Positions 10,241-46,248 are shown, counted from the first letter of the stretch. The stretch: DNA of 64,000 nt from Balanoglossus misakiensis (GCA_040954595.2 CM082577.2:18264303-18328302); one strand, 5' to 3'. Notes: generated from the letters alone by a model not told the origin. Translations and numbers: made by a program.

Positions 10241-10268
10241 GCAGTTGAAATGGGCCTTGGCCACCTCC

Positions 10269-11267: not shown

Positions 11268-14200
11268 ACTGACCGCCTCGGATGGTAGAACGTTTGAGGA
11301 AAGAATCTTATTCGTGACTTCTGCAAGAAGTTTAGCGGACCCGATGTTCCGACGTGTTGTTTTATGGTATTACCATAGTTGGGAATCGTCTTCGATTCTG
11401 GACTTTTGATTATTAAATATTTCTGGTCGACATATATACTCACTAACATTAAAATGGACAAGAATAGGGACAGTCATACTTACACAATATAGTATTGCAT
11501 TATATCGCGAGCACATTTTAGTGCATGTATACAAGACACATGCCAGTTTCCGTCTATCTCAAGTGTGGAAGTGGGATAGTGTGAATATTCTCTCAGTTTT
11601 AATTCTCACTATCTTGTTTTGATCAGGTAATCACCCTTCAAGTCAAGACTACCGAAAAATACCAAACGTTAGAGCTATAAGCCATGTAATAGTATTCTAT
11701 TTGTGACAATCGCAAAAGAGGAGAGAAATACAGTTGAGATATTTTAGTGATCATTTCCATAAATTTTGGAGAAACAATACATTTTTGACGTCACGATGAG
11801 TGACACTACCAAGAGTAACATCGGTAACTCTAATAAGAGCGACTTAGAAATTAGAGTGTTCAGACTCAACCATGAAATAATCTCTAACACTGTTTATATT
11901 GTTAGTATTACCATGCCGACGTTCGCAACGTCACCATTATTAGTGCTTCTTGGCCTCAAGTAACATCTGCAAGTAACAGCATTAGTGCCAAGCAAGATAA
12001 CAGCCTGCGGCAAAACAGTGCAGCGCAAGGCGGTGTGTACATTTCTTTCAAAACTGAGATTGTCACAGTAACAAAGATTTCAGTCTGTTTACACACTCGG
12101 GTAATCGTGCACAGTTTAATTTCCTTGAGACAATTTCAGTTCGAAATTTATGTTCCATGCAAAGCAACCCGGGTTGGGCATTCGTTTCGTTTCTGTGTCA
12201 CAGCCTTTAACTGAAGCCATGGGTGTTCTTCCTCTCCATGTCGAGGACTCCATGATCGTATGTTTATGTACTACGGCGCCGACTCTATGCATCACGCAAT
12301 AATAGGAAAAATTTCTATAAATCGATAAGTATAAGTTTTCAATAACTCACGATATATCTGATGTAGAAGGGAAACGTGACATATTAACAGAAGACTAACC
12401 AACCAAATAAACCAATGCAAACTGTACAAATTTATAACAAGATACGCAATAGAGATATACTGATGTAATATAGAATGCTAGAACGATTATTTCACAATAT
12501 TAATCTGTACTATTTAGATAGCTGCGCAGAGAAAATACAGACAGACGCACAGACTTCATTGCATTGCAAGGCAATTCATTTCATGTTTATTTGCTCATTT
12601 ATTACATAGGCAGCCTCTTAACACATAATTCAAGCAACATTTTTGTCTGTTCCTTTGCTGGAAAATAATTGCTTCTCGGGCAAAAGAATTTTGATTAAAT
12701 ATGGCACAACAGTCTCAGAGGTATGTGAAAGCCAAATTGGCTCTCAAACTAAAACCCACGGGCTAAAATGGATATTGAAGGCAAATTATGTTTTATCATT
12801 GAATTTTCTGACTCTGAAAGGTACTTGTAATGCATTCAGTACCGTCTGTTATTGTTGTAAACTAAATGTAGCCACATATGACATATACAGAAAAAGAACA
12901 GTTGATATTGGATGAAATATTTACCATTCGCTGCAATGTAAATTAGTATTTGAACCATATCATAAAAGAGGTCGTAAATATATAGCACTTCAATACACGT
13001 GTATGTCAACATAAAAGTAGATACTTTTTACACTGGTTACTGTGAGCAAAATTGTTATTGCCTGTATTGGGACTAAATTTAATTAAAACATCGCAAATTG
13101 CATCCATGGATGGCTAACCATGCATGCGCAAGAAATATAAATGTAGAAAGTTTGGTGTCTCGTAATCTCGAACTAAACCATCACGTTTTCTTCTCATTTT
13201 ATAAACTGGAAACTACCGTGACGTCTTACATTTTCCGAACACTTCCTGTAGAGTATCTAGTTATTGCGTGTTATGTATATATATATATATATATATTATT
13301 TATTTATTTATTTGACCAGTCATCTAATCTCCAGAAAGACAGATACAGCAAACAACTAGTGAAGACTGGACAATTTGGATCTCATTATTTTAAAGACGAC
13401 TCAACCCCCAACAAAATCGTAGGGCAAGTACTCAAAATTATAATAGTTCTCGAAAGTTCGACAGTCAAAATTACTTTTTATTTGAACCTCGGCCTCTGTC
13501 TGCCTATTGTAATTCTGCGAGCAATATCAGGGTGTCTTAATGTCTAATTTCTACTTACTCTCATTAATGGCTTTGACAGCAGAGAGTTTGATATAAAAAA
13601 TCGGAGAAGAACGAATATGGTAGTATGGGTTGAAGTTTTTGCCCAGCAATCAGACAAGTATATCAGATGATGAAGTTACAAGTAAGCTGCTATGTTGTCC
13701 GCCTGGCTGCATTGGTGTATATGGAACTCGGTTGTAACTTGTGAAAAACGAAAGAGTTTAACACAAACAATGGTATTGTGATATTAGGACCGAACTTCCT
13801 GTGGATTTCAAGACTGGACACGGAAGGTGAAATAAATGACTTGACGAGTGTGAACACGTGAGCTTATTAGCATTTGAACAAGTAATATATTTAGAATGGA
13901 TATATTTATTAGATATCTCTTTTGACATTCAGGCCAAATAATCTTTTGACTTCTGTTTGTATACCACACATTGCAATATCTTGAAGACTATATGGATAAT
14001 TACGTACATCAGGCGCTGCCGTGGCTGTTTCACTGCAGCTTTAAAATTGTGACTTACCAACAGGATGTTTAATCAAGCAAAGTACGTATTCCTGAATAGG
14101 TTTTGTAGCTCTAGGGCTTTATCTAGTATATATATAGTATAGATATATTTAGTATATGTGTTAGGACCCTTAAATAAGCACTCACAATAAAATAGTGATT

Positions 14201-19218: not shown

Positions 19219-19498
19219 ATCTCGTGCGCACGAGATACTAAGTCGTGAGTACGAGATACTAAGTCGTGAGCACGAGATACTAAGTCGTGCGCACGAGAAA
19301 CTAAGTCGTGAGCACGAGATACTAAGTCGTGAGCACGAGATACTAAGTCGTGCGCACGAGATACTAAGTCGTGCGCCCGAGAAACTAAGTCGTGAGCACG
19401 AGATACTAAGTCGTGAGCACGAGATACTAAGTCGTGCGCACGAGATACTAAGTCGTGAGCACGAGAAACTAAATCGTGAGCACGTGATACTAAGTCGT
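19219..19498 (+). repeat. 21-bp tandem array (TCGTG[A/C]GCACGAGATACTAAG), ~13 units
   Basis: Read directly. Reverse-orientation copies at ~37177-37330 and ~38362-38421. Confidence 0.95.
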
Positions 19499-19582
19499 GT
19501 ATGGCAAGCCAAACGTTGCAATTTTCTTGTTGTATAAGTTTATTTTTATTCTTCAATTTCACGTTTGCTTTGGTCAAATTAT

Positions 19583-19935
19583 ACTCGTGTTCTTCAAATC
19601 TATATTTGTGTTCTTCAAATCTATATTTGTGTTCTTCAAATTTATATTCTTGTTCTTCAAATCTATATTTGTGTTCTTCAAATCTAGATTCTTGTTCTTC
19701 AAATCTATATTCTTGTTCTTCAATTTCACGTTTGCTTTTGTCAAATTATATTTGTGTTCTTCAAATCTATATTTGTGTTCTTCAAATCTATATTTGTGTT
19801 CTTCAAATTTATATTCTTGTTCTTCAAATCTATATTTGTGTTCTTCAAATCTATATTCTTGTTCTTCAAATCTATATTTGTGTTCTTCAAATTTATATTC
19901 TTGTTCTTCAAATCTATATTCTTGTTCTTCAAATC
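19583..19935 (+). repeat. 21-bp tandem array (GTGTTCTTCAAATCTATATTT)n
   Basis: Read directly; it generates the spurious low-complexity ORFs in all frames. Confidence 0.95.
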
Positions 19936-20465
19936 CACGTTTTCTTTCATCAAATTACATTCTTGTTCTTTGATTTCATTTTTGCTTTCGTCAAATTACA
20001 TGCTGTTCTTCAAATCCTGCGCTTTCGTAGAACTACCGGAAGTTAACATGTTGCCCTCTGCAGAGGGCGCCGTCAATGATCTTTGGCTTTTCAGCAGCAT
20101 CTCAGTGAAATCGAATTACGGCAAATCTATCATTATTAATCATCTGTAGATCTCTTAATCTGCTACGCTCTTGTCTGTTCCACTGATCTGAATCATGATG
20201 GTTGAATTTATTTTTGGACGCACCTCAAACAACGGAATGCCGTCATATCATCGCAAATTTGAAAATGCTATTTTTGATAATCTTGACTCAAAATGTCAAA
20301 TAGTCAAATCAGTATGTTTTTATGTATTCGACTTCAATATTATTTGTCAGAATGTGATTTATAATTTTTTTTTACCATATCAGTCCGTATATGTCAATCC
20401 AGACCGGCACAAATTAGCGACATCAACTGTCACACAATCAAAAGAACATAATGTAACGAGATTTT

Positions 20466-20828
20466 TATGGGGTGAGAACACCGCCAAAAATAGCTGATGT
20501 CTTTATTTGGTAGTTTTCTCATCATTATTATGCTATTATGTCATTATTTGGCCATTACCTTGGCCATTATTATGCTGTTATTTGGTTATTTGGCCGTTAT
20601 TATGTCATTATTCAGTATTAATGTCTTTATTTGGAAGTTTTCTCATCATTATTATGCTATTATGTCATTATTTGGTTATTTGGTATTTATGTCGTGGTCT
20701 CGACATTACCTCGACCATTACCTCGGCCATTATTTGGTTCGCTCGACATTATCTGACCTACTTTATTATTTGAACTCTTGCCCGGTACCCAGAATTCATT
20801 GCACAAAATCATTGCACAAAATGGCGAC
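20466..20828 (+). repeat. Left TIR (363 bp) of the IS3EU element, ending inside the transposase start codons
   Basis: Reverse complement of 34080-34623 apart from a 13-bp left-only duplication and a 194-bp right-only duplication. Confidence 0.92.
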
Positions 20829-23800
20829 TGTACAAGTAATAACAAGACGGTTGTACGATATTGCTTCCGCACTTGGGTCAGTAACTAGACCAAGTGAGTT
20901 GGAAGCTGTGTTTGACGACATCGTTTTACAAGAAGAAGAACTGGTCCAATTATGCATCCATACTGATGTCCCAGACAACGTGTTTGCACAACTCTGTCTT
21001 GCTATGACAACTTTGATAGATTTTCTTGATAATCAGTCACAGAACATTGGTCCAAGCGTCTGTTGGCCGTATCGTTCATACAAAGTGAGTTCCGGGGAGC
21101 GTGGTAGACCTCGCTTCGATATCCCGAAAGAACAGTTGCAGTTCTTTGTAGCAGAAAGATTTAGCGTACCAGCAGTGGCAAAAATGCTAGGCGTTTCGAT
21201 ACGAACCATACAAAGACGTATGTACGAGTATGGCATTTCAATTGCGGAATCATATGCGGAGTTGTCTGATGAAGAGCTTGATGGAATGGTTACTGACATA
21301 ACCAATCGTCTTCCAAACACGGGAATGAAAAGGCTACATGGACTGTTACTTGCCGAAGGTAAACGTGTGGCAATTTTTCGAGTCAGAGAAAGCCTTCGAC
21401 GTGTAGATCACAGTGGAGTTGTCAGTAGGAGAAGAACTGCAATACGTAGGAGGCAGTACAATGTTCCGTGCCCTAATGCATTGTGGCACATAGATGGAAA
21501 CCATAAACTGATAAGGTTAGTGTACTTATTGGTCAAGCCTGTGAAATACTCAAACCGAAGGTCTCCATGCGTATGGACAAATGTGTTCTAAAAAACGGCT
21601 GGCTGAAATATATTTATAGGATAATGTTGGTGCTCTATCCCAGCTAATTCAGCAATCACATAACAATTCACTAAACATTTTTCGGGTAAAATACTTGATG
21701 ATATTAGCATAATTATGTTGAAAATATTTATATTGTATTTTTGGGCAATTTTTGCGATGTTATTAAAAAGTCCATTTCTCAGAAATTGCCTGTCCTATTT
21801 TAAAAAATGGTTTGTAGGATGCTCTGTTCTTATTGTGATGTGTAAAAGATTATGATAAAAATATTATTCTCATTCGGTTGATTTTGGGGTCAAATTTTTG
21901 GGTCTCTTTTTCAGAAATTGCTTGTCCAGTTGCTTTGAACTTCGGTTTGCAGGTTCCGGGCAATGTTTGCCATCAGACTTATCTATCATCTGATAAAAAA
22001 TGTATAAATTTAATGCTAAAGGTATCTTGTTGGGTTTGTTTTGGTAATTGAGTCCAAATAAAATTGATGTATTTCACACTTGAGTGTACCAATTCTGATT
22101 AAATGGGAGGACAATGTCCTGACAGTATAAGATGAAATGTTTTTAGAAATTAAAGGGACAAAGTCTCTCTCTCGCTGCCCTTTTTTTTCCATTAATTATA
22201 TTTGATACAAAACACCGTTTGTTATTCTACATGTGGATATATAGTGAATGAACGTTCAACCACACACAACTTCCATCCTCCTTATAGACAGGAGAGTGAA
22301 AAAACTCGCCAAAATGAATAATCGTTCTTTACCATTTATTTATTTTGGGCAAGTTTTACTCTCATATCATACAAGTGGGATGGAAGTTTTGTGTGGTTGA
22401 TCATTGATTCACTATATATCCACATGTACATTAACATAAACTGTGTCTGGTATCAAACATAATTAATGGAAAGGGGGCAGCGAGAGAGAGACTTTGTCCC
22501 TTTAAGAAAGCTTGCATTTATGTCACTACACCCCGATTTAATTCACTGGCGAAGTATTTTGTGATATTGCAGCAAGTTGTATGAACTGACAATCTAAATA
22601 GGCAGGATCATATTTCACTAACAGCTCAACAATGACCAAAGTTTGTCTGACATCCATCATAAGGGACAGACCATTTGATAGCCATGGATTATAGAAGGGG
22701 CTAAGAAGATTAAATGTTTGATTGAGTTATGTACAGTAACCATTCAATTTGATATTGCATGTGATGCATGGATGGATGCAATATACCAAAATGGAGTTGT
22801 GGTGTCAATAATGCTATTTTTATCAGTAAAGGTTTCATTTTCAGACCTGTATCAACATCACTTGACAAGCCATTTCTGTCAATTTGTTGTCCATAGATGG
22901 AAGTTAGTAGTACATGGTGGAGTGGATGGTTTCTCAAGAATGGTGGTCTATCTTGTATGCAGTGACAACAACAGATCTGACACAGTTCTTGAAAGTTTTG
23001 AAGATGCCACTCAAAGATTCGGAGTCCCATCTCGGGTGAGAGCTGACAAAGGTGGTGAAAATGTATCTGTTTCACTATTTATGCTCAATCATCCAGCTAG
23101 AGGACCGGGAAGGGGAAGTTTCATATCTGGCAAGAGTGTACACAACCAGAGGATAGAACGTTTATGGCGTGATGTATTTTGTGGTATTTTATTTAAATAC
23201 TACAACCTGTTTTACTACCTCGAAGATAAATTGCTGCTTGATATAGAAAGTGACATAGATATGTTCTGTCTGCACTTTACATATTTACCAAGAATAAATC
23301 GAGATCTTCAGCACTGGCAAGAAGGTTGGAATCACCACAAACTTAGCACTGCAAATAGCAGATCGCCAAGACAGCTTTGGATTCAAGGTTCTATGGAAAT
23401 GGCAGGCTCAAATTACAGACCAATGAGAGAACTATTTGAACCAAGAACTGAGGTATGTACAGGTGCAGGTTCCATGCACTTTCAAAAGTCCTCATGCTGA
23501 GCATTTGTTTCTCACAATTCACACATCAAAATATCTTCAGAGGGACATTTCCTAACTGAAAAGAATTGAAAATAAGTGCGACATACAAAATTTGTAATTG
23601 GCAGATGGTATCTCAAACCAAACTTTGCGACTGTTTCTTTTTAACTGGCTGACCCTTGCTCTTTAAAGATAATATGTCAAAAGATGGAAAATAGGAGATA
23701 TAGTGATGATGCTTAGTGTTCTTTTATGGAAATCACAGATAGTGGACGATAATAAGAAACAGATTTGATTTTTGTGCTTTAAACTGAATCTTTTATATTT

Positions 23801-24029
23801 TTTAAAGGACGAAATCATGCATTATGGGATTGACTGGGATGGACCTCTTCCAGAAGATACAACAGATGCCAGAGTCGAGATTCCCATAGTTTGTTGTCCT
23901 TTAGAAGTTGATGAATTTGACGATCTCATCGGTTCCATTGACCCATTAAGAGATGGTGATATGTACGGCATATCAGTGTATCAAGATGTGATTAACTTTG
24001 TCAAGAGAGTGTTGGAAAACAGGGAATAA
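20821..24029 (+). CDS. IS3EU-type DDE transposase (HTH + integrase core), 490 aa, 3 exons: 20821-21515, 22897-23452, 23808-24029
   Basis: GT-AG junctions join in frame (695+556+222=1473 nt). HTH GRPRFDI...[16 protein letters not shown]. Catalytic motifs [18 protein letters not shown] and [12 protein letters not shown]-terminal [14 protein letters not shown] overlaps the stop. No disabling lesions seen. Confidence 0.92.
22154..22501. mobile_element. Kolobok-like palindromic MITE in transposase intron 1
   Basis: TTAA|AGGGACAAAGTCTCTCTCTCGCTGCCC...GGGCAGCGAGAGAGAGACTTTGTCCCT|TTAA. Imperfect arms of ~165 bp. Confidence 0.8.
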
Positions 24030-25019
24030 AGAAGACTTGTTTTGGTCTTTATGCAGATTGTAAACCTCAAGATTTATTGTCTTCCATTTGCCATATGTTT
24101 ATGGCAAAGCAGAGCTTTTGGGGTAACACGTCTGTCATATGTACATGTATGTATGTATGCATGAATCCATGTTATGTATATTATATGTGTGTATGTCTGT
24201 CTACAAAAACAAAACAATTGATAGGGATGCATCTGGACTGTTGATTGAAATTTGTTTGAATTATGTTGTGTATATGCATATGAGCTCCCTCCCCCCTCCA
24301 CGAAAAAAAAGATGTCAATTAAGAGCTAATATAGATCTGTTTATTTTGTGCTGATATTTGGAATTTTCTATTTTAATTTTCTATTGTAATTTCGAGATTT
24401 CTTAAATTTGGGGTAAAATATTATCTTCTCAGATACTATTTGTCTGAGTGATACTGAAAGCTTTAAAATTTTATACGGTATGCACTATTTCTTGAAAACG
24501 GGAGCACAGTGTCATTGTCACTATTTTTCATATGAAGATTGGAAAATATTGTTTATCTCAAAAACTTGCTACAGGCACTGTATTGATATCACATATTTTG
24601 TAAACCATTATTGAAAATGTCACAAAACTTGTATATGTAGAATGTTTTGATGTACCGTAGATTGCTTGTACAATATACATTGGTTAAGACTTGGCAACGG
24701 ACAGAGAAATAAAAGCACCTCACTCCATTATTCAAGTTTATGTATAGGTCAAAGAGCACCATTCCTATGATTTCAATAAAATTGAAGCCCTATAAAGGTT
24801 ATCAATTTTTTTAATGCTACTTTAGAGGAGTTTGTGGTGTATGGTTCCCAAAGAAGGCTTTTTCTGACTGAGCACAACAGAGACAGTTACAACAAAACCA
24901 GTCATACCTCTGTTCCCTTTGAATAAAGACAAGATGAAGTAACTAACAAAAGAACATGTTTTGTTTATTTTTTTATTCAACAATCATTCAACAGGCAAAT
25001 TCAATTTGCAATAACAGGA

Positions 25020-25140
25020 TGAGGTACCCATTACTCCTGGGTAGGGGAAGAAGCAATGAGAAGTTAAGTGCCTTGTTCAAGGACACATCATCATGGCCAT
25101 GCTTGGTCTCCCACTCACCATCTAGCCACTGAACCATGAA
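25020..25140 (-). mobile_element. tRNA-derived SINE fragment
   Basis: Minus strand reads TGGTTCAGTGGCTAG...GTGTCCTTGAACAAGGCACTTAAC...CCCAGGAGTAATGGGTACC, motifs typical of conserved-core metazoan SINEs. Confidence 0.5.
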
Positions 25141-25332
25141 GCCCCTAAAAAGAGTCTAACTACTTGGTAACTAAAAACTTTATAACTAAAGCACAACACA
25201 ACTATGTGTTTGAAAGCCACTGGCCAGGCCCATTGGACTTATAACCCCCTCCCCCCCCCCCAAAAAAAAAAAATCTTGGGAGAAATCAACTGCTTTGGAT
25301 TGGATTACTCGAAACACAGTGCATGTGTATGG

Positions 25333-25502
25333 CCAATCTGATTAAACTCCGATGAAGAGATGGGGTGATCTTTCACGCTCCGTATATATGGTCTTTTCTT
25401 CCGGGGTCCGACCATACTGAGGAATGGACCCCGGAAGAAAAGACCATATATACGGAGCGCGAAAGATCGCCCCATCTCTACATCAAATTTTAATCAGATT
25501 GG
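25333..25502. mobile_element. 170-bp palindromic MITE between the two convergent genes
   Basis: Arms of ~75 bp include a perfect CGCTCCGTATATATGGTCTTTTCTTCCGGGGTCC / GGACCCCGGAAGAAAAGACCATATATACGGAGCG pair. Flanks TGTATGG/TGTATGA form an imperfect 7-bp TSD. Confidence 0.75.
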
Positions 25503-26239
25503 TGTATGACATGTCATGGTACATTGTCCATAACACAACTCTAAAAATAGCAATAATGTTGCTTAGCTACTATAGACTTGGACGGTACTTAAGACAAACA
25601 TAGTACAATACCAGATTGCAAGTGCAAAGTTTCTTGACAATATTCTTGCGGCAGAATACCCTTTGCATACATACATGCGCATCTGTGGACAGAGGAACAC
25701 ACATGTAAATGAATAATTTCAAGGAAAGAAGCTAGTTGCTGATTTTTTGAGATATTCTAAGGATAAAGATATTCTAAGGATCTCAACCAAAGCATGGAAC
25801 CAAATATGTAATCCTTGTTCCAGACTATTTCTGGTGGTACTAACAAGTGAATTACAGTACAGATACAATGTAAAATACAAAATGTCTTTTGCTAATGCAC
25901 GAAAACAGAGATATCTTGTAACAGTCTTCTAAACAAGCGGCCTGTATGAACTGTGGTTTCTGAGAAGAAGTCAATTGTTGACAGACGGACAATCCACCTA
26001 TCTGATAAGCTCTGCGTTGTTGACAGCAGAGCTAAACGTGTATAGTGTATCCCAGTATATCAATAGAATACAATGTATGCTCAACTGACAATATAGAGGA
26101 ACACCTCTGCAATATAACTTTGCAATTAAGTTCAGAATATTCAACTGTGATATAACATTCCATAGATCACACCTAAATGTGAGTTCATTAATTGCTAGAT
26201 CATTTCTGTCCTTTCTATTCAACTGGCACTCTGTATCTA

Positions 26240-29200
26240 CTAGACATTACCAAAATCACGACTATTTGCTAGAGCAAAAGTTAGTCTCTCTGAGAATTCA
26301 TCTATGCAGCTGAAATATCTTGGCAATCGCAGAGTATTGGCACATGTATTGGAAGTGGGAACAGTGGAATTTGTGATAAATTCTATGGACAGCCTTTCTT
26401 TGAAACCTAAAGGGGGTATTGAATGTGCGCCTGTGAAGAATGAGAGAATGTCAGCAAGTGTTATGACAACTTCAGTAGATTCATTTTCACTCCCAGCATA
26501 CAGACTTGCTTTCTGATTCCCTGTAAGACATAAAATAAATGAAAATTGGAGAATGCACATGAGTTATATATAAAGTGGGCATTCAACCCATAAGACCCTT
26601 TTCTGCAGAAAGTTATTTAAAGGGGAAATAATTTACTGCATTTTGTATTTTTAATCTTTTTGGCACTTAATACGTGGTTACTGACCTTTAGCACATTCAT
26701 CGATGAATTCAAACCAATAGTACATAGTAGTTTCTTCTTGTGTTCTGTTATTCGACCCACTTGGACTATATTCCACATGCATAGCTTTAAAGTAATCAGC
26801 TGATGGATACAACTTCTTACTGAAACACATGAAGTGCTCCATAGACCCTAATTAAAAGAATAAAAAAAGATTGCGTAAATATACCTCTGTGTATCTGTTC
26901 AGATTAATTTTTAAAAACTTGGTCTTATTATAGATAGCCCCTAACAGAGAGATCCCTCCATTGGAACCACCATATTACCTAGATAGATTCAAAGTTTACA
27001 TGTATTGTTTTCATCAAACGGTTCATCTGGAAAGTGTTGCATGTGAAGTGAATCCAATGCCTCACCCAATCTCCACGCAAACACTTGGGGTGGATAATTC
27101 TAACCTAGCTAGGGAGTCCGACCACTACCCCCCACCAATCTCTGCCACAGGCGACAATTCACACCCACTTTTTGGGTGTTGCGCGTTTTCTATAATATAC
27201 ATTTCCTGTTTTTTTATGTTTAATATTTTGAACCAAAAAATATAAGAACTAAAAAATGCACCAGTTTCAAAGTCGATCCTCGATTCTGTGAACACTTGCA
27301 AAACATAGATCCTGCTCTGGGTTACATAAATGTAAATTAACAATTCAAGATGGCTTCCATATTTATTGAACCAACTGAGCACGCGCAGAACTGAAAGAAG
27401 ATCCGGTCTGGAATATTTAAATTTGCCTCTGGCAGAGAATAGTGGCTATTAGTCAAACTCCCTAGCTAGGTTAGTCTCTGTGTGGAGATTGTGCCGCACC
27501 CTGAAGAGAATAACCTAGCTATATTTCAATAACTGGAACAAATTTCGCAAAATTTGCAGAAATTATAATCATACTATTTCTAAGATTTAACAATGCTGTG
27601 AGACAGTTGGCAGTGGCATGCAAGTTAATTGCTTATTTGCATATTGACAATTTTTTGCAATTAGGCACCACATCTTGAAAATTAACTGTGCAATTTAATC
27701 AGTGACTGTATACATACCAGGTTCTGCCTTTATCAATTCCTTTACATTCAAGATGTTCATCCCATCTGAGAATTGGTTTATCCCGGATATTGCTTTATAT
27801 ACGCAGTGATGTGCTATTAGATTTTGAAGAATTGCATCTTTCATGTCTAATGTGATTGTATCGATGGGATCCGTACAGCCTGTTATATTGGCAACGCTTT
27901 CTTCGCCAATACGAGATACAGCAATTCTGAGGTCCTCATTTGTGTTACTGGACTGGATCTGTATAAATAGGATACAGGGTTATAATTAAAGTACTTTATT
28001 TACACAGAGTTTACCTTAATAAACAAAATTGTCAACCATGTTGAAGAATATCTCAATACCTATGCAGTGGAGGCAGTATCAACGTAAACAAATACCAAAA
28101 AAAATCCTTTTCCTTTGAGAATGAATATTGCAAATGCAAAGGTATTACACATGTATGTCACTGAAAGGTGTCTCCAACAAAACTGCCTATACCATATCTC
28201 AGTAATACTTAAAATACAATTTTTGACCAAAATGACCCAAAATCCAGTCACTCTGACAACAATCACCAAGGAAAGGCATGCGCATATGTAAATTCATAGG
28301 TCTTTGCCTTCATGCTAACTCTTAACAAAATGGCAAGCAGGATTGCACAGTAATACTAATAGTTTAAGTATCATTTTTGCCCAGAAGTCAGAAAAATATT
28401 CAAATAAATAAAAAAATACAGATGTCGACACAATATGAACAAATCTTCATAGATTTTGTCTAAGGTACATAGAAACTATATACAAAGGCAATCTGGTCAG
28501 CATTTTCAGAGGGTTTTTTTTAGTTTTCACAATTTTTGGACAGTTGAAATACACACACACACACACACACATACATACATACATACATGCAGACAGGCAT
28601 TTATTCAAGCCTATTGCCATATATGCATATGGCATATGCGAGCCAAAAATCTCACCTGCTTCGCTATCAGCTGTATCTCATAACCAGGAATTTCATCAAC
28701 GTCTTTCATTTCTGCAACACAGCCTTTTGCCATGTATTGGAATGTTCCTTGGCTCAGGCAGTGTAGTCCTGGACCGCCATGGCAAAGAGATATAGCAACC
28801 ATCTTGCCTGCGGTGAAATACCTTCTTTCAGCCAGATAGTGCAAATCATGGGAAAAGCTTAGGTTGTTTCCTTGCCTTCAAGAACACCAGATGTTTTTAC
28901 AGCATTAATCAATAAACTGCAAAATTCCCTTCTTGGTCCCCCATCATCAACCGCACTTTCACCAATAAATGACACTTTCATCGGCTTGTTTAGGTGGAAA
29001 TCAGATCGATTTATGGCCCTTACAGCTGTTTGCCAAAAATTCGACCTTAAAATGTTAATGCGTTGATAATCATCATCATCATAATCACTACCAATTCCTT
29101 TGTTGTAATCCAAATGCATTTGTTCCACCTGGTGATTTAGTACTTGGACAGCATACTCCAGACTACATCTATATGACAATCAAAAAGACAAGAAGATTAT

Positions 29201-32200
29201 AGTGATTCAATCTGCAATGGTTTATCCAATTTTTTATAATTTAGAGTGCAATGAGTTGCAATTTTTTCCATTTTCTGTTTTTCAATTGTTGAGATTTGTA
29301 AAGACTGACCCTCTGGTGTCATTGTAATATTCAGTCATGGTGCTTTGTCCTTTGAACGAACAAAAATAAAAACAAACAATCACACAAACTGGCTGACTGT
29401 TTCCTATATTTGATCTCATTGCACACAAAAATCATATACAAAATAGTGCAATACCTTTGTACCATATTTGAAACAATCAGCATAGGAGCATGTCTGGATA
29501 TTTGCTCTGCACATACAAAAACACGAGCAAAATGCCTGAGTGGAAGCAATATTGGATCATATCTCAAAAAAAATTGAATTGCTCTGGACATTACAAAATT
29601 AAACTGGTGACTAGTCAACCATCTTGGATCAGATTGCAAGTAAAATGCCACACATATGAATGACATGTTACACTGTCCATGAGCCAAATTCTGTACAGCC
29701 ACGTCTAAGAAAACGTTCTGCAGTCAAAGCATGTACGCACACAAAACCTAATCTGTATGTCACAGTTTCATCTGATGGAGACTAAAAAGTATGAAAAACT
29801 TTGCAACAAATTCAGCTTATGTCCTTTTTATTTGCAAGTATTAGATTAATATTTTATTCAAAATGACCAAAAGAGTAGGGTGTAACACTATGGTGACACT
29901 GCAATGTCACTGTTTCCATGGAAACAATGTTTGGTACCACCTCTTTCCTTTGGTCTTTGTCGTGTCTTTTATGGTACCTTTTGCTCAGCAGAATATCAAG
30001 AATTTGAAGTGCTTATAGAATTTTCACCGCTGTGATAGGAGGTCTGGGTTGTTGTTTTATGTGTTTAACAAGATTTTGACAGACCTTGTGTACTTTCTCG
30101 ACCTGCCAGCAAATAAGCTGAACATGACAATTAAAACAAAACAAAAACTTTGAATCTGGTAAGTTCACATAGTTTTGAATGTGGTAAAATGGCTAAATCT
30201 CACAACTACTTAAAAGCCAACAATATTAATCAGTATTTGAATGAAGTAAAGTAAATGGACTTATTATGTGAAAAAAAAAGAATGACAAAGCATCACAGAG
30301 GAAGCGAGTACACACGTGCAAATGTCATACCTTGGGTACAGTGGAGCATTGTTAGCTTCTATGGTTTCTTCTTCATTTTCTTCTTGACTATCAACACTAC
30401 CAGTACTATCCAATATCTGTGAATAACTCCTATCATATTGGAAGTAACGTAAAAGTTACATTATCAAAGGTAGGACAATGGAATGTCACTCACTTACCAT
30501 TATGGTAACTATATTTGCATAATTTACATACACTTACATAAATGGCAGGTGTGTCTTTGGTTAAAATAACTTATCTAATGATCCAGGATACAATAAATCC
30601 CAGTCTCTGTATAGAGTATTTCTATTGGAGCTGCGCTATAAGTTATCGCTCTCATACTGTATGGATCAGTTACCCTCGATAGAGAACCACCCAATATACC
30701 TTGCCTGCAAGAAGTCGAACATATAATGTTGACACCAATGTATAATCAGTAATATGAATAGCTCTGGTATGACAAAGTCTACAATGGAGATAAAGAGAGA
30801 ATAGAAAAAGACAGAATACAGTTATTGTATTGTCTATCTTTGCAAATAATCTACACTGACTACAGTACTGATTTAGAAATACTGACCTGTCAAGAGCTAT
30901 CATCAGTGAATTAGCACTTCTAGTGTTCATATTGCAATGTCTTGCAGAAGTCAAGTCTTGGTTTTGACCAGAATGATTTCTAGAATAAATCAAAGTAAGA
31001 CTTAAATGGACACCTGGTCCAAATTTTAAAAGAGAACTTACGCTAGATTTTAGAGTTAAAACCAAGAAATGTGGTTAAAATCATGTAGTTAAAAACTTTG
31101 GTTTTACCCTCTTTCAGATGGATGTACACGCGGACACACACACACACACACAGACACAACAGTCTATGCCACAAGGTGCTCAAAAAAGTGTTTCAGCTAG
31201 ACAGGGCAATGGGGCAATTCCCCCTCTGTTGGCACCCCCTAGCAATTTGCCAAGGGGCAGCCAACCTATCATGAAATGATGTCAGTCACACCTTGGAGAT
31301 AGACAACAGTATATTCTTTTTCAAAAGAATTTGTTGAAGTCCCCCCTTACCGGAGTAGAATCCCCTCAAATATTCTGGCAAAGGGGGGCAATCCCCCCCT
31401 GGTGATGCCGACCTGGATGAAACACTGTCATTATTGATGTACAACCTGGTGTTATTTTCCCTATGGGCAAAGAAGTCTCCACCAGTAATGGAAGGCGAAA
31501 ACCAGTTAGCAAGTTTTTACAGGACAGAGTATCGTGCCTCAAGGAAATTCATCCAGGATTCCACAATATCAAACAAGTGAGAACTAAGAAATTCTCTGGC
31601 TGTCTGCATGTTGAGTACATGTAGTTGAGAAACAGTCACAAACTGATGGTCTGTTATTTCTGTCACTTCTCAATTGTAAAGAAAGTATTATCTACCTCTT
31701 CTAAATGAGTGACTGCAGTAAAATAAAGTGAAAATCCTGCAAGATTTAACAAAAACCGTAAGCTTTCTTGGAGCTGAATTCATGTAACAAGATTAGCTAC
31801 AAAATGTCCTCTGCACATTGATAATTCAATAGGTGACTACATAGTAACTTATTCAGCTGATTCATAACAGATCAGTTATTTGTAAAAAGTAATACACATG
31901 CACACATTACATGCATATTGATTTTGCCCAATTCCATAATTGCTAAAAGCAACTGTTATTAAAACTTATTTCCTGATTTTATTCCACTGATATTACATTT
32001 TCAATCGAACAAGCTTTACCAAAAATAAAGGTGGAAAACTAACCGTCTCAGTGTACTTGATTGCCTTGCTCTGTGTGTAGTTCTTTCAGGACTGCTTATT
32101 TGAACTGGAATCAGATCTCTGAAATGTCAATGATTGTAATTTATCAAACTATTACTAGTAATCTACAATAACCTTCAACATTTTATTGTAAAATTTATAA

Positions 32201-33994
32201 TTTGTAGCGGATGTTTTGCTCGACCCATGATTGGTAGGTTCTGAGTACAAATTGTGTCCAAACAGGGGTTGACCCCTATCCATGGTGTAAAGACGCCAGA
32301 TTCCTTTGCTTCGCTTGGACAAGTAAGTTTCCTTAAATTTGGTACAACCACATGAATAGACACTGCCAGACGTCCTACAGCGCCATCATAGCTTTGTATG
32401 ATCAACATCTGTAGTAGGTGTCGTCAAATTTGAGACTGATTTGATATATAACTCTAATTGCAAAAAAACATATGCAAATTACAAATTAATTGAAAAGACA
32501 CTTGTAAATGTCTTTCAATATACATATATCGATGGACTCTTCATAATTTACACCATCCTTTCTCTTTTAAAATGTGTATATTAAATATGCCTACCTGTCA
32601 CTATCCTCATCATCTTCTAGTTCTACCACCTCAAGTCCTCTGCATGCATCAATATGGTCCCTTAGCTGGGAAAATGGAATCTGTACATTACACTTACTGC
32701 ACATTTCCCTGGGAGCATTATTTATAGCCTATAAAATATAATTAAGTGCATTTCAAACAAAACCATTTCAACATTTAAAATAGCAGAGAAATTGTTTACA
32801 TTATAACTTTTGCAAAATGAAAAAACTTTACAGTGAAAACAACCTAATATTTGACGATGAGATTGTTCCAGATATTGTTAGGTTTGTAGTTTAGGTTAGG
32901 TAATTTGTTCCTAAATATTCTGAACTTGTTTCAAATATTGCCTACTAGCTGTATGTTCTCAAAGACAAAACTACTAGTAATAAACACTACAACAAACTCC
33001 AGACACATGCCTGCCTGTCAGTTGCCTCTGTGTAATTAGTGAGATCTTATCACGGTGTTGATTACCAGATGTAACTATGTAACTACATGTATAAACATGT
33101 GTTACAACACTGGTATCTGCAATAATAGGTGGTCTCAAAATTTACAAGCAAACTTTTACATTAAGTTGTAAAAATGACATCAAAGAAACCTTATTGGAGT
33201 CCCAGCAACTGCTGCAGGTTTATGGCATGCATAGCATATTAGTATAGCCATGAAAAGAAACACAAAATACTCACCGAAATTGTACTGGCCATATCTGATG
33301 GTGTAGTAATTGGCATTACTGGTGTTCCTTCGAGGTCGTTTTGTAAAGGGCGTATATACAGCTTAGCTTGCCCAGCCTCAGTGTTTAAACACATTTGTGT
33401 GTACCCCTCGGGTGGACAAGGTATTACAACTAATCGTCTGCTTCCTGGGTATGCACGACATATCTCATAGCCACCACCTTCGCTCAATTTTGGATATTCG
33501 TCAAGGAGCAAGTCATGAACCTCGGTAGCTGTACTACCAATAGGTATCGAAATTCTCCGCTCACCTAGTCCAACTTTGGACAAATCGGACCGCTGCTTCG
33601 GAGTTGGACACCACTCACACTTGGTACTGTCCACGCACACCCATACACGAGTCCAAGTTGGTGATACTGTGGATCTGCCTCTATTATTACTACTACTATA
33701 TACTCGCTGCTCGCTGCGAGATCTAAATCTCGGACGATGGCTCCGCCGACGTCCCGCTCCCGTTACGGCATTTCTGGCAAAATTGTCGTGGAATTCACGA
33801 ACAATATCACTGCTTCTGCTTCTTGGTGGTCGATCGATGTTTAGCTCAGCTTGACCAACACTGCTGTTGTTGTCAACAGTTGCCACATTATGGGCGCTAT
33901 CACGATGCGTATTAACATTCTCAAGGAGTGTGGCCGCACTATTTATCGCATCCCGACAGGCCCTAACCGCTTCTACGAGTCTATTGTCTGCCAT
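26240..33994 (-). CDS. Transposon-borne UBZ4 zinc finger + G2E3-like HECT E3 ubiquitin ligase (~741 aa after repairing a 1-nt frameshift). Exons 33994-33275, 32728-32595, 32118-32044, 30429-30331, 29168-28656, 27958-27718, 26847-26686, 26520-26240
   Basis: All junctions are GT-AG and phase-compatible. UBZ CSKC-x11-HIDAC. HECT motifs VSFIGESAVDDGGPRREF, YFTAGKMVAISLCHGGPG, NQFSDGM, YSPSGSNNRTQEE, ILSFFTGAHSIPPLGF, catalytic PTSNTC and terminal DFGNV*. One base is missing at ~28867-28869. Confidence 0.85.
27069..27491. mobile_element. Degenerate TIR MITE in a HECT-gene intron
   Basis: CAATCTCCAC...CTAACCTAGCTAGGGAGT...TCTCTGCCACAGGC is an inverted match to 27422-27491. Confidence 0.55.
31187..31427. 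mobile_element. hAT-like MITE remnant in a HECT-gene intron
   Basis: AGTGTTTCAGCTAG...CTGGATGAAACACTG termini with GGGGCAATT/CCCC subterminal motifs. Confidence 0.45.
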
Positions 33995-34079
33995 AGTTCA
34001 TTTCAGCCTTCACTGTTTACCCACCACGCGTGCTGTTTCCAAGACTGTCGTCGGCCACGGCCCGCGAAACTTTCATACC

Positions 34080-34623
34080 GTCGCCATTTTGTGCAATGAA
34101 TTCTGGGTACCGGGCAAGAGTTCAAATAATAAAGTAGGTCAGATAATGTCGAGCGAACCAAATAATGGCCGAGGTAATGGTCGAGGTAATGTCGAGACCA
34201 CGACATAAATACCAAATAACAAAATAATGACATAATAGCATAATAATGATGAGAAAACTTCCAAATAAAGACATCGGTACTGAATAATGACATAATAACG
34301 GCCAAATAACGAAATAACGGCATAATAATGACCGAGGTAATGTCGAGCGAACCAAATAATGGCCGAGGTAATGGTCGAGGTAATGTCGAGACCACGACAT
34401 AAATACCAAATAACCAAATAATGACATAATAGCATAATAATGATGAGAAAACTTCCAAATAAAGACATTAATACTGAATAATGACATAATAACGGCCAAA
34501 TAACCAAATAACAGCATAATAATGGCCAAGGTAATGGCCAAATAATGACATAATAGCATAATAATGATGAGAAAACTACCAAATAAAGACATCAGCTATT
34601 TTTGGCGGTGTTCTCACCCCATA
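34080..34623 (-). repeat. Right TIR (544 bp) of the IS3EU element, with an internal 194-bp duplication
   Basis: TAATGTCGAGCGAACC recurs at 34144 and 34338. Otherwise it mirrors 20466-20828. Confidence 0.92.
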
Positions 34624-35229
34624 GATTTTGACACACGTTGCCATAAATAGGAAGCTTTAGAGCAAATTCCGTAGTTACGTAAGTATTGCCATCGACTGTC
34701 AGTGCATGTCACATGATCGGTGGATGCAGCCACGACCAGTGCCAGAATACCGTTTTCCGTGTGTGTGAAGTGGCCTAAGCAACGGAAAGACTGTTATCAT
34801 TCGAGGATAATAGACGTCAATATTTAGCGGACATATCTTAACGAAATGACCCGCCAAAGTGGATGAAAAACACCAGTTCTTATAAAACTGTGACATTTTT
34901 ACCCAACATACCAGGAAGGTTTATGAAGTGTGGCCAGTATAGTCTTCAAACTCATTTCTTTACGTGATAACTAAATGGCTGCAAATGACTTGCAAACCAT
35001 CTTTTAAATGACCTGGGGTCAGTGACCACAAGTCGTGATTGTTTTCAAGTGTGCATAACATGTACATGTAATTGTAGGAAATCCAGGTGTGATGAATCCT
35101 GATGAAATTCTTTTTTTCCCTTGATTTATGGGAGATCTGAATGACATAATTTTCGAAGCTCTCTTTAAACGCTAAATCCATGTTTTTAGTGAGATATACA
35201 TAAGTAGTCAATATCACAATGGCAACACG

Positions 35230-37175
35230 CACAGTCGAGTAGGGCGCAGATAAAAGCGATCTAAGAAGTGTGCTGTCAGAAGAAGAGGTATTGGAGTCGG
35301 AAAATGAAAGACCCGCGACTATATACAGAGCTCGTTAAAGACACTCGTGGCGGTTCGCGAAGAACTCGAAGAGAAGCTAAAAAGAGGAAGAAAGCAAAAC
35401 GTAAACGATAAGTAGCTAAGATGTAAGGCTTCTTTGCCACCTATGAACTCAAATAACATACATTTGTTATCTCTGAACTGTCGGGGTTTAAGAGGTGATG
35501 AGAAAAGACGACAAATATTTCAGTGGTGTAGAGACCAAAAACCACATGTATTATTGCTACAGGAAACTTACTGGGACGAACAAATTCAAGATCAAATTTG
35601 CAGAGAGTGGAAAGGGAAAATGTTCCATTCTTTTGGTACTAACCACAGTAAAGGGGTTACGATTATGAAAAAATTGGATCATGAGATAAAGTATTCAAAA
35701 AGGGACCAGTATGGGAGAAAATTACTTGTATCTTTAGATATCAATGGTGAAACATTTACTATATACAATGTAGTTAATATTTACGCACCAAATCAACCCA
35801 AAGAAAGGGGGCTTTTCTTTATGTCTTTGAAATGTTGGATTCAAAAACATACGAATGGGGATGATTACGTGTTCATTGGAGGTGATTTCAGCACCGTTTT
35901 AGATGCGAAGGTTGATTCATTTGGAACGAAGTGTCATTCTGTTAAATCTAAGAAACTAGACGGGATTTTGAAATATTTTAAATTGTGTGATGTATGGCGA
36001 GAAATGAACCCTGCTAAACTACAGTTCACCTGGAGACAAGTTAACCGTGGAATTGAGAGTAGACTTGACTTTTGGTTAATTCCCCATGACTTTCTTTCTA
36101 GTGTTAACTCTGCCGATATTCGGCCGACTATTAGAACAGACCATAATGCCATTTCCTTAAAGATTAGCCTGAAATAAATATTGTAAAGGCCCGGGATATT
36201 GGAAGCTCAATACGAGTCTACTCAAGGATGATAACTATAGAAGAATAATAAACTACGTCATAACACAAGCCATAACAAATTATCAAAAACTATGATTATA
36301 GAAATTATTAGATTTAATTAAAATGAAAGTCAGAGAAGCAAGTATTATGGAAGGGAAAAGGAAAAATATAAAAAAAGAGACAAGCAATAATTCAAGAACA
36401 GCTTAAAGAAATTGAAGATAAATTACTTAGAGATAACAGGGGAAAGGAAGACCTAATAAACATTTATGAAGACAAAAAGAGGGAACTAACTCAGCTATAC
36501 GTAAATAAACTACGTGGGATTCAAATTAGATCCAGGGTGAAGTGGTACGAAGAAGGAGAAAGAAACAGTCGTTATTTCCTGGGACTAGAAAAGAAAAGAT
36601 TTAGAGCAAAACATATAAACAGGTTGATGGTTAATGATAAGGTTATTACAAAGACAGATGAGATATTAGCAGAAGAAAAGTTTTTTTTGTGAAGAACTTA
36701 ATAAATCCGAAAGTGTTAATAACAGTAAAGTTAAAAAATACATAAATGACATTGAAATAGAGTCTAAGATCAAAGCAAGTGAGGCATTAATGTGTGATGG
36801 TAAAGTTTCTGAGGAGGAATGTCTAAAAGCCATGCGCAGAATGAAAAGCAACAAAACACCAGGACCAGATGGCATTCCTATAGAATTTTAGAGAGTGTTT
36901 TGGAAAAATATAGGTAAGATAGTAGTAGACACTTTTAATGAAGGTTATAATAAGGGTGCGCTAGCCAATTCTCAGTGTAATGGTATCATAACGTAAATAC
37001 ATAAAAAGGAGTGTAGGCTTAATCTAAAAAATTGGAGGCCCATATCGCTGCTTAATCATGATTACAAAATATTATCATGCGTGTTAGCTAATAGATTAAA
37101 TCAGGTTATACCTAAGTTGATTAGTACTGACCAAGTGGGCTATATTAAAAGACGTTTTAGTGGCCAAAACGTTCG
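35230..37175 (+). pseudogene. L1/Tx1-clade LINE fragment (ORF1 basic tail, APE endonuclease, start of RT), degraded and 3'-truncated
   Basis: ...KKRKKAKRKR* then LSLNCRGL, LLQET, NIYAPN, GGDF, SRLDFWLI, TDHNAI, GPGYWKLN, RSRVKWYEEGE, KTPGPDGIP, NWRPISLLN. Contains stops and frameshifts and is cut off by a 21-bp array. Confidence 0.88.
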
Positions 37176-37176
37176 G

Positions 37177-37330
37177 CTTAGTATCTCGTGCTCACGACTT
37201 AGTATCTCGTGCTCACGACTTAGTATCTCGTGCTCACGACTTAGTTTCTCGTGCGCATGACTTAGTATCTCGTGCTCACGACTTAGTTTCTCGTGCGCAC
37301 GAATTAGTATCTCGTGCTCACGAGATACTG
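37177..37330 (-). repeat. 21-bp array (same unit as 19219-19498, opposite orientation)
   Basis: Repeated CTTAGTATCTCGTGCTCACGA. Confidence 0.9.
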
Positions 37331-39458
37331 CCTCATAATATATTATTAGCACTGGCATTATTAACTATGAACTTCATACACTTTATTGCTGATGCTTGGT
37401 GATTTTCACGTTCATTATGAAAGGAAAGAAGCCATTCCTTTATATTTCAACATGGGTTTCAACTATTGTGTAATGTTGGCTTTGAAAGCAAATATCACGA
37501 TTTTATTCTGAGCATGTGAAATTTAAAGAGAATATTGTACAAGAATGGATTGTACAGACGAAAACACCAGTCAGATGCCACCGACGTTATATCATACCTA
37601 AGCTATCAACCGGTCGGCTATACATAAATACAGATGGATGAAATGTCTTCAACATGGTCTTGTAATTGTCCAAGAAAGCACCCAGCTACTTTATCATTTA
37701 TCTATCAATAAAATATGTCGTTAGCGACGTCGTAACCAGCATGTTCTTCACAAAAAATCCAAAGGAGTGACAATCGTACACTTCAAATTCTTTTGTCAGA
37801 ATTAAAATAAGGTGTATTCCTGTGATTTGATACAGGAATGTATTACACATTACAAATCAAGCAAAAAACGTTTGGGGTCTTATGATCGGAAGCGGCACTA
37901 CGATGCAGTTAGCAGTTATTATATAGCACTGGAAGTCTAGTATATTTTGCTATTCTTAAACATTGACGGTGGAGTGAAACACATTGCCCGGAATGCTGAC
38001 GTGAATACATAATTTATGTTTCGATTTTTTATGTTTAAGCGAGTGATAAGCTGCTATTTCTTGCCCCGAAAAGATTCGATGCAACTCTAAATTTGGCGAC
38101 GTAGCCAATACCCGTTTCAGTGTTTAATAAGTGTATAACTCAAAGCAAAGCAAAATTTAGAACTATTACCCGCTCTTCAAAACATCGAGATGAAATGCTC
38201 GAGACTCAGATCTGGAAAGCCCTTAGTCTGAAATTTAGCAGTGACTTTCTGGTGACGTTGAATGTGACATACATAATAATTAAACTGTCTGGCCACGTAA
38301 CCTCCCGCGTTGATCAGTTAAGCTTTCGACTCCTTAGGTTCATTGCAATAACATGCGAAATTATCTCGTGCGCACGACTTAGTATCTCGTGCTCACGACT
38401 TAGTATCTCGTGCTCACGAGATAAAAAAAAAATATTTGCTTTACGAAATGTCCCTAACGGGCATTCATAACTTTTAATTCTGCCAATAAAATGAAATTAA
38501 TATATCGAGATAGCACTCATTTAGGACAAAATGGCTAAAAAATAAAAAGAAATAGCAGAATGCCTAGAGTCGAAAATTCCCGCATTTTTTTGTTTTTAAA
38601 AAGTGAAAAATTGTAAAGAAAAATTAAAATGTAATGTCTCAGTGGAGTACATTTACTTCCATGTGTTCTAGTGGATGAGATAACACTTTGTTTGTATAGT
38701 TTCAAAGTGGGAAATGCAACGTTTTCATTGTATTTCCATATTTCCCACGATGGCGGTCAGTTTTGCTGGCGACAAAGCTTTATTATTCATCTGGTTAAAA
38801 CTTGCATATGCACTCATACTTCGGGTTTATAATAATTGTACATACTTCAGTGCAAACATCTGTATGGACTAATGATAGTACAGTTTAAAATATACATTAT
38901 AATTATCCGAAAAGTTGAAGCCCATGGGGCTTTAAGACGAGCAGATGTGATCATGTGCTGTTGTGCCGGCCAAGAAAGAAACGCAATCGGAAAACAAATG
39001 GAGCATAAAATAGAACATTGTGGGAGTAAAACCAGGCTACATGTATGTGCGTAAATTGCGCTACGGGATTAGTGTGCCTAAACAAAGTCAACACTTTGTA
39101 CTGGAGACTTTGTCGGATTCGCTTTGCCCGGATTGCCCAGTTCGTGCTTAATGGAACAGACAAGCAGCAAACCCGCACAGCGTGTGTATACAATAATTGT
39201 AGCGTACATGTTGTAGTCATTGAGTGAAAGTGCAAGAGTGAAAATAAACTAGTAGATATCATCATCCAAGCTGTCATGTTACGCATCATGTTAAGATGTG
39301 GCCTGATTGTAAAAATATGATATTAAACGAAATAAATGACTCCATCAAGAACATAACAATACATTATGTGATCATTACGCAGTACCACTCGTTCTATATC
39401 GCTAGAAGAACTGCACATGGACAGTACTACTGGTAAAATTGGTGATAGTAGTTTTACG

Positions 39459-41249: not shown

Positions 41250-42761
41250 TCCAGATCTTTTAGTCTTCAGCGGAGTTTCACAACTGGGCGGATTGTCTGG
41301 TGGCTCGTTATCAACATCAGCAGCTAGCTCTACTGTTGGACTTGGCTACAGGTGACTGGGATGATTTGCATACAATCTTCCTTTCATCTGCTCTGTGGGG
41401 TGATACAGTCATTTCCGGAACATTGGGAATAACTGCTTTGGAACATATGTCTCCCTGGTTTTCTTCAGATGACGACGATTGCGACGATATTTTCTACCAT
41501 CCTCAGTTGTAACTACGTATGAGCGGACGTTGATCTGCTTTTCAACTTCTGCCTTCTTCCAGACTTTCTCTGTCTTTCTGTCTGGCATTATGCGAACAAC
41601 ATCTCCTTTGCGTAGTGGGGGTAGATCTTTGGCTCCTCTAATGTAGTAATGGACTTGACGGACCTTTATACTGTTGTTGATCTGTTTTCCTGCATTCTCC
41701 ACTACAACTGGCTTGAGAAGACTGGCAGTTGTTGGCAACAAGGTCTTCGTTCGTCTGTTCATCAATCTCTGAGCAGGACTGCTATCCATACCCTGTGTAG
41801 GTGTATTTCTGAAATCAAGAATCGCCAAGTACTATATAGGGGTCTGCGTTGGCTATCTTTGCTTTTCTCATGATGTTCTTCGCTGACTTCACTGCATTTT
41901 CTACTTTGCCATTGCTATGAGAATATCCTGGGGATGATGTAGTATGGTCAAACTTCCATACTCTGCTGAATTTCTGAAATTCTTCAGCTGTTATCTGGGG
42001 TCCGTTGTCTGAAAAAACACAGATCGGGTATTCCATGACGAGAAAACTGTGCCTTCAGTTTTCTGACAACTGTCTTTGCAGTAGTATCAGGCAAATAATC
42101 GATTTCCCAGAAGTTGGAGAAATAATCCACTGTGATCAGGTAATCTTTGCCATCAAAGACGAATAGGTCAAAACCTAATTTTGACCATGGTCGCGGTGGA
42201 ACTTCATGCGGTACTAAGGATTCCTTCTGTTGACGGACTCCTACTGTGCGACACACTTCACACTTCTCTACATAATCTCTGACCTCTGCATTCATGCCTG
42301 GCCAATACAGACATTCCCTGGCTCTTCGGAGACATCCTTCGGTGCCTATGTGTGATGCATGAATGCCATGCAACATATGTGTGATGCATGAATGCCATGC
42401 AACATATCATGTTGCAGGCTCTTTGGAATGACTGCCCGCTCACCCTGGAAAACAATCCATCGTCAATGCTCAGTTCATCGCAAACATTGAAGTATGGGGT
42501 TAGCTGAACCGGTAGATCTCATTTGCTCTCTGGAAACCCACTTCGTATCACGGACATCAGCATCTGTAGGCTCTTGTCATTCTGAGTATGTTGCTGTATT
42601 TCTTTACATCTCGGATCAGAAAATGGTAAGCTCTGTACCATGTTGACAGTCTCAATCTCTGTCTGTAATCCATCTTGTGGCTCACCTTTCAAGTATGCTC
42701 GACTCAGAGTATCCGCGAGTTGCATCTGCTTTCCTGGACGGTATACAAGTTGTATGTCATA
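41250..42761 (-). pseudogene. Gypsy/Ty3 pol 3' part (RNase H end, integrase zinc finger, rve core), frameshifted
   Basis: YDIQLVYRPGKQMQLADTLSR, IHASHIGTEGCLRRARECLYWPGM...CEVC, VDYFS, SDNGPQ, SNGKVENAV, RNTP...SPAQRLMNR. 29-bp tandem duplication at ~42347-42404. Confidence 0.9.
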
Positions 42762-46237: not shown

Positions 46238-46248
46238 ACAAGATCTTC

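Follow-up and report, generated by a model that had tools for sequence, protein, structure and literature searches.

Results

A two-gene IS3EU-type transposon in Balanoglossus misakiensis

A 64,000-nucleotide (nt) stretch of the Balanoglossus misakiensis genome (CM082577.2:18264303-18328302; hereafter the window, with positions counted from its first letter) contains a 14,158-bp element (20466-34623) holding two convergent genes, one for a transposase on the plus strand and one for a predicted HECT ubiquitin ligase on the minus strand. The element begins and ends with TATGG..CCATA, in agreement with the TAYGG..CCRTA ends and terminal inverted repeats (TIRs) of the IS3EU/GingerRoot group, and GATTTT lies on either side (20460-20465 and 34624-34629), the 6-bp target-site duplication (TSD) expected of that group. 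The outermost arms (20466-20754 and 34335-34623) are 289 nt each and 100% complementary. The left TIR as a whole (20466-20828, plus strand) comprises 41-nt and 12-nt subrepeats and a 13-nt tandem duplication (20796-20822) and runs on to the first transposase codons, and the right TIR (34080-34623, minus strand) has an additional 194-nt unit and an inner end that mirrors the transposase start.

Evidence on copies and on the empty site came from read contigs of one sample. Contigs from two runs joined the two flanks directly, left to right, across a single GATTTC target, and loose ends lay at 20464. This empty version had 9 differences from the window over 234 flank bases and a depth two- to threefold that of the distal flank, and may therefore represent an allele or a paralogous site. 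In one run a second flank, unlike that of the window, was found at the repeat tip. Read-contig depth in X1 was 67 in the distal flank, 135-185 inside both genes and 837 at the repeat tip, which hints, depth not being copy number, that the genes are present in two to three copies and the repeat ends in more. The original prediction of a unit delimited by TAT..ATA repeats and GATTTT duplications was borne out by the exact arms and the empty-site contigs, and the element is a real, recent insertion of an IS3EU-type cut-and-paste transposon.

The transposase gene has three exons separated by GT-AG introns and encodes 490 amino acids without internal stops, as had been proposed. Exon 1 (20821-21515, plus strand, like the other two) encodes the N-terminal region with a helix-turn-helix (HTH) and the first catalytic aspartate, D225; exon 2 (22897-23452) encodes the DDE core with D282 and E319; and exon 3 (23808-24029), placed by the splice model and a homologue match, runs to the stop codon. 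The protein matched Pfam rva_4 (E 3e-72), exon 1 gave HTH matches and zero matches to an integrase (HHCC) zinc finger, and D225 lies within the 100-300 residues from the N-terminus at which the first aspartate of IS3EU/GingerRoot transposases is found. The core motifs agreed by eye with those of Repbase IS3EU-1_CVi, IS3EU-4_DR and IS3EU-1_SK in the alignment published in the supplement of PMC10045372. On this Pfam match and these motifs the predicted enzyme is an IS3EU-type DDE transposase, and together with the termini and the 6-bp TSD they uphold the family assignment made earlier. Intron 1 carries an insertion resembling a miniature inverted-repeat transposable element (22150-22505), with TTAA ends and nested inverted repeats; its family must be very high-copy, because its read-contig depth was thousands of times that of the flank.

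The second gene encodes a predicted HECT ubiquitin ligase

The original prediction of a convergent spliced HECT gene held, with a different structure: the ligase has nine exons and 772 amino acids once one base is added, rather than about 741, and carries, as assembled, a frameshift that had gone unmentioned. Exon 1 (33275-33994; all nine are on the minus strand) encodes an N-terminal helix, a linker and a conserved ubiquitin-like (beta-grasp) domain (~33311-33670), and exon 2 (32595-32728) a C2HC zinc finger. Three linker exons follow, of which exon 3 (32044-32118) is the least certain, being placed by splice phase and by a resemblance by eye to a segment of P0002, and exons 4 (30887-30979) and 5 (30331-30429) by weak homologue matches. 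The HECT domain spans exon 6 (28656-29168; N-lobe), with a one-base frameshift near 28866 in the window that is not in read contigs, exons 7 (27718-27958) and 8 (26686-26847), both identified by homologue matches, and exon 9 (26240-26520; C-lobe), with the catalytic cysteine codon at 26344-26342 and the C-terminus FGNV. Searches with Saccoglossus kowalevskii homologues (tblastn) supported eight of the nine exons, two of them weakly (E ~0.002-0.007), and annotated proteins of that species showed matches of 66-81% to the HECT exons and ~74% to the N-terminal domain, which may point to a related marine invertebrate host or a transfer. A palindrome with 77-nt arms (25333-25502) and a 327-nt segment (27123-27451) skipped by some contigs are probably further small insertions within the element.

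Exon 9 exceeded the Pfam HECT cut-off, and the model of the Saccoglossus homologue P0126 (predicted local distance difference test, pLDDT, 85) showed a whole bilobed HECT fold, with Foldseek matches to HUWE1 (E 9e-14), AREL1 and Smurf2 (E ~1e-13) that covered both lobes at 13-18% identity to solved HECTs. The ligase has an NTC motif, whose catalytic cysteine was retained in all 32 covering rows (31 loci and the window; 34 rows were examined, and L027 and L029 were omitted as fragments), and the phenylalanine of its FGNV end was invariant in 53 homologues, in line with the rule that HECT ligases carry phenylalanine at position -4 from the C-terminus. The gene product is named here as a predicted HECT ubiquitin ligase. 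The finger in exon 2, previously called a UBZ, conforms to a C2HC pattern and is likely a UBZ by sequence, although its matches fell below the Pfam cut-offs (zf_C2HC_14, E 1e-4; zf_UBZ, E 0.09). The exon 1 domain (~110 amino acids) had a confident fold prediction (pLDDT 94) and no Pfam match; its Foldseek matches were weak (E 0.014 and above), the top rows all being of beta-grasp type but one, and included SAP18, the RING1B RAWUL domain, RBD, FERM F1 and UBX.

The closest database matches of the ligase are named 'G2/M phase-specific E3 ubiquitin-protein ligase-like', a label that would suit an ordinary host G2E3 orthologue lying by chance between two repeat ends. That explanation has virtually no chance of being correct: the PHD-like/RING module of true G2E3 is missing from the window ligase (none was found in the window exons scanned, P0002 or P0125, and one is present in P0175), S. 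kowalevskii has at least four annotated ligase loci, all on contigs shorter than 15 kb, and the empty site lacks the gene altogether, which refutes it.

The transposase-ligase pair recurs in related transposons

A transposase alignment was used to scan metagenomes, and the surroundings of related transposases were examined in the best 80 of the 498 stretches confirmed, which came from 27 of the 64 parts of the collection (set 1). HECT domains were sought there with a profile derived from 60 database proteins rather than from the loci themselves. A HECT domain lay downstream on the opposite strand in 35 of the 80 loci, spread over 21 assemblies (by contig prefix), whereas it lay downstream on the same strand in none and upstream in three; where the side in question extended for 3 kb or more, the convergent downstream arrangement was found in 20 of 29 loci and any upstream HECT in 3 of 24. 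With a profile iterated over the loci, HECT was also found in L055 (downstream, same strand) and L036 (upstream). All eight set 1 elements bounded by TAYGG..CCRTA contained the ligase gene; five of these had an exact 6-bp duplication, one a 5-bp duplication and one none, and one reached the contig end. L038 and L042 represent one family at two different sites. In 20 further loci (set 2), probably host contigs binned into microbial genomes, a convergent HECT was present in four (4 of 12 among the long ones), including one complete element with its HECT gene (L083), which brings the repeat-bounded elements with HECT in both sets to 9 of 10.

No alternative companion common to the loci lacking HECT was seen by eye, several of them being interrupted by other insertions. 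Three AT-rich loci (L036, L044 and L052), probably fungal as judged from composition, had HECT-like genes upstream of an IS3EU transposase, unlike the animal-type elements. Relatives were not found among viral contigs, and Atlas search matches fell in eukaryotic clusters only.

Since the two genes occur together in related transposons from many sources, the ligase probably belongs to the machinery of the element itself, and we are highly confident that it is a built-in second gene. Its recurrence inside repeat-bounded elements favours this view, advanced in the original prediction, over accidental capture; the four outcomes named there as contrary to it, namely confinement of the gene to a single copy, orthology to a host gene, missing linkage and neutral evolution, were not observed.

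As a separate observation, twelve set 2 loci (L082-L086, L088, L089, L095 and L097-L100) were intron-containing eukaryotic transposons on long contigs in bacterial or archaeal genome bins, probably through host contamination of the bins.

The HECT domain is constrained but exchanged between elements

The ratio of nonsynonymous to synonymous substitution (dN/dS) for HECT was 0.11-0.26 in three near-saturated pairs (0.11 for L021/L035) and 0.33 in the unsaturated pair L012/L009 (76 codons), for which the transposase gave 0.09. Near-identical pairs, with few changes each, were uninformative (HECT 0.53 and 0.56; 1.07 in one transposase pair), and four comparisons were saturated. The HECT gene is under purifying selection.

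The expectation that HECT and transposase would share a phylogeny did not hold, and only the N-terminal domain of the ligase followed the transposase. Unrooted trees were built for the 10 elements with all three parts, most of them from one host assembly, with rows of merged exon pieces. The transposase and the N-terminal domain had a deep split in common (bootstrap 96 and 98; Mantel rho 0.42, p 0.008), which coincided with the loss of an intron at KLIR/W, whereas the HECT tree united L021 with L035 (67% identical, bootstrap 100) across the transposase split. In approximately unbiased (AU) tests the N-terminal alignment accepted the transposase tree (p 0.10) and rejected the HECT tree (p 8e-5), and the HECT alignment rejected both other trees. 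The congruence is partial, since the transposase alignment rejected the N-terminal tree too (p 0.004). A strictly shared phylogeny of HECT and transposase could be rejected both for 12 dereplicated elements (rho -0.08, p 0.66) and for the 10 elements, for which rho was 0.33 (p 0.047) but the AU p was below 1e-13. The N-terminal domain therefore tracks the transposase in part, and the HECT domain is exchangeable between elements.

The conflict between the HECT and transposase trees, and the broken state of the window copy as assembled, would also be expected if the HECT gene were passive cargo, captured once or repeatedly and hitchhiking like the host gene fragments reported in 22 of 77 plant GingerRoot elements (PMC6839031). 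Such cargo would hardly remain complete, in constant position and orientation, while most locus pairs are only 18-48% identical in HECT, nor retain the catalytic cysteine in every covering row and a dN/dS well below 1 in the informative pairs. These features largely refute passive carriage, which we consider improbable.

A ligase that may act on its own transposition complex

Taken together, these data incline us, by a little, to regard the element as an IS3EU/GingerRoot transposon whose recurrent predicted HECT ligase likely acts on its own transposition complex. Mirrored promoters within the inverted repeats would drive joint expression of the two genes; the N-terminal ubiquitin-like domain would dock the ligase on its transposase or on the element ends; the C2HC finger would read ubiquitin; and the HECT domain would build chains on the transposase or on chromatin or repair proteins at the site, with the outcome that the complex is cleared or the transposase dose limited. 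We judge this transpososome-directed mechanism to be evenly balanced between right and wrong.

In the window the inverted repeat mirrors sequence as far as the transposase start codon, and the right-end mirror of ATGGCGAC is a four-codon upstream open reading frame (ORF; 34087-34073) 93 nt ahead of the ligase ATG. The repeat likewise continues through the ATG in L001, where the arms of a 68-nt inverted repeat (603-670 and 8350-8417) end in the start codons of the two genes, transposase and ligase. A complex prediction for the L021 transposase with the ligase N-terminal exon (score 0.19, mark 0.34; run without alignments, controls not folded) was evidence neither way.

The main rival to a ligase acting on its own transposition complex is a built-in ligase acting in trans as an anti-silencing factor, which would ubiquitinate silencing or chromatin proteins of the host (piRNA, HUSH-like or Polycomb components), bound through its N-terminal domain. 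The weak fold matches of that domain include the chromatin-complex adaptors RING1B RAWUL and SAP18 (all E >0.01), HECT swaps between elements of one host suit a host-facing enzyme, and the TET/JBP genes of fungal IS3EU elements have been proposed to aid escape from methylation silencing (PMC12730594). The fold matches also extend to RBD, FERM and UBX, however, so that no partner is named, and the N-terminal domain goes with the lineage of the transposase and not with the host, with very different versions coexisting in one assembly. We consider the anti-silencing role possible but rather unlikely.

Several observations weigh against a recurrent ligase directed at its own transpososome. The tracking by the N-terminal domain can be read in two ways that both remain, namely that the domain binds its transposase or that the adjacent repeat drags it along: the N-terminal exon adjoins the right repeat, and tracking could reflect recombinants that kept transposase-matched repeats. 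Of seven other elements, only two had inverted similarity near the transposase ATG, reaching through it in L001 and stopping ~35 nt short of it in L021, and a clear finger was present in only 6 of the 10 scanned loci and in 8 of 53 proteins from databases. As to recurrence, six of the eight complete set 1 elements came from one assembly, a convergent HECT was missing in 9 of 29 long loci of set 1 and 8 of 12 of set 2, and the HECT gene was lacking from L099, a repeat-bounded element of 1.66 kb. In the Saccoglossus genome no transposase as close as its ligase, and hence no linked pair, was found (best 58% in the core). Finally, the ligase frame of the window, as assembled, breaks near 28866 and meets a stop after 476 amino acids, ahead of the catalytic lobe. 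Contigs from both covering runs had one extra base there and fit either an assembly error or a break private to the window copy; given eight other internal differences from the window, three of them non-synonymous, they may stem from other copies, and the break in the window copy may be real.

The element lies among other repeats. Two adjacent 21-nt tandem arrays were recorded in its surroundings (19222-19935, 37177-37323 and 38362-38419), and the unit of the first, high-copy in reads, recurs inverted on the other side of the element. Decayed elements of long interspersed nuclear element type, with endonuclease, reverse transcriptase and ORF1-like frames, and a long terminal repeat integrase fragment were recognised around it from the ORF list (35416-37260, 42899-50344, 4606-11369 and 41409-42406).

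Discussion

Comparison with described transposons

Ubiquitin- or SUMO-pathway enzymes are known on mobile elements from the Ulp1/OTU protease cargo of Ginger1, Mutator and Zisupton elements. Such cargo is mostly deconjugating and often fused to the transposase, whereas the window ligase is a predicted conjugating HECT encoded by a separate gene.

The described IS3EU/GingerRoot elements resemble that of the window in their TA..TA termini, 6-bp duplication, IS3/integrase-like DDE core and N-terminal HTH (PMC10045372; PMC6839031), and IS3EU has been described as encoding two proteins (PMC10853768); the window element differs in that its second gene encodes a ligase with ubiquitin-like domain, finger and HECT. 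Fungal IS3EU families share the TAYGG..CCRTA ends, the 6-bp duplication and a host-like enzyme gene opposite the transposase, but that opposite-strand slot is occupied by an alpha-kinase in the fungal elements and by the HECT ligase in the window (PMC12730594). The word HECT is absent from the main texts of PMC10045372, PMC12730594, PMC11934779, PMC6839031 and PMC10853768 and gave no matches in the supplement of PMC12730594. We did not find the transposase-HECT pairing described in the literature, with Repbase, the GingerRoot supplements and subscription papers, which could name it, lying outside the search. A match to 'hect' in PMC3520738 proved to be 'trophectoderm', unrelated to the HECT domain; the same source reports on a talk given in 2012 about DNA transposons that contain conserved proteins of host origin. 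New here are that the N-terminal domain follows the transposase while HECT is swapped, that the TIR mirrors sequence to the ATG and that the HECT of true G2E3 falls in the divergent group of the element ligases.

Relationship to G2E3 and 'G2E3-like' genes

The suggested link to multi-copy 'G2E3-like' annotations was corroborated, five of ten representatives looked up (from crinoid, firefly, scallop and clam) bearing that label, and transposon ligases may have given rise to many such genes. Some homologues are fused to CARD-caspase, UBX, RING, CUE, SAM, Neuralized or rva_4 domains. Among fish models, P0197, P0221, P0176 and P0231 have this HECT type fused to CARD-caspase, SIX1-UBX, Neuralized or an rva_4 fragment; some of these may be annotation joins and some real domestications.

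Vertebrate G2E3 has a HECT of the same divergent group as the element ligase but differs in its PHF7-like N-terminus (PHD-like/RING), where the element ligase has the ubiquitin-like domain and finger, and parrot G2E3 lacks the catalytic cysteine motif that the element ligases have. Parrot G2E3 was among the top 40 matches to the Saccoglossus ligase (E 7e-26, 1.8 billion proteins searched), and no solved HECT matched parrot G2E3 at E up to 1. In the HECT tree it clustered (99.9/100) with firefly, fish and other proteins, apart from the element-borne set, and the direction of transfer cannot be read from this tree for want of a canonical outgroup. G2E3 has been dated after the chordate/echinoderm split (PMC2837046) and, according to a reference title in PMC13015453, is required for early embryonic development. 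From the ranking of parrot G2E3, the grouping of its HECT and this dating, it is plausible, on an unrooted tree, that vertebrate G2E3 is a domesticated transposon ligase. More tentatively, and with the chances somewhat against it, IS3EU may have carried a HECT ligase, composed of a transposase-matched adaptor and a swappable catalytic domain, since before the animal/fungus split, and most 'G2E3-like' genes of invertebrates and fish, as well as G2E3's own HECT, fused to a PHF7-like module, may derive from this mobile ligase family.

A transposon lineage that keeps its own HECT ligase is a case in which control of protein degradation by a mobile element can be put to the test, and the separate histories of adaptor and catalytic domain point to where the partner may lie. 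Many multi-copy 'G2E3-like' models of acorn worm, crinoid, mollusc, firefly and fish would be reassigned to transposons, and a transposon origin may explain both the late appearance of G2E3 (PMC2837046) and a HECT domain unlike other host HECTs.

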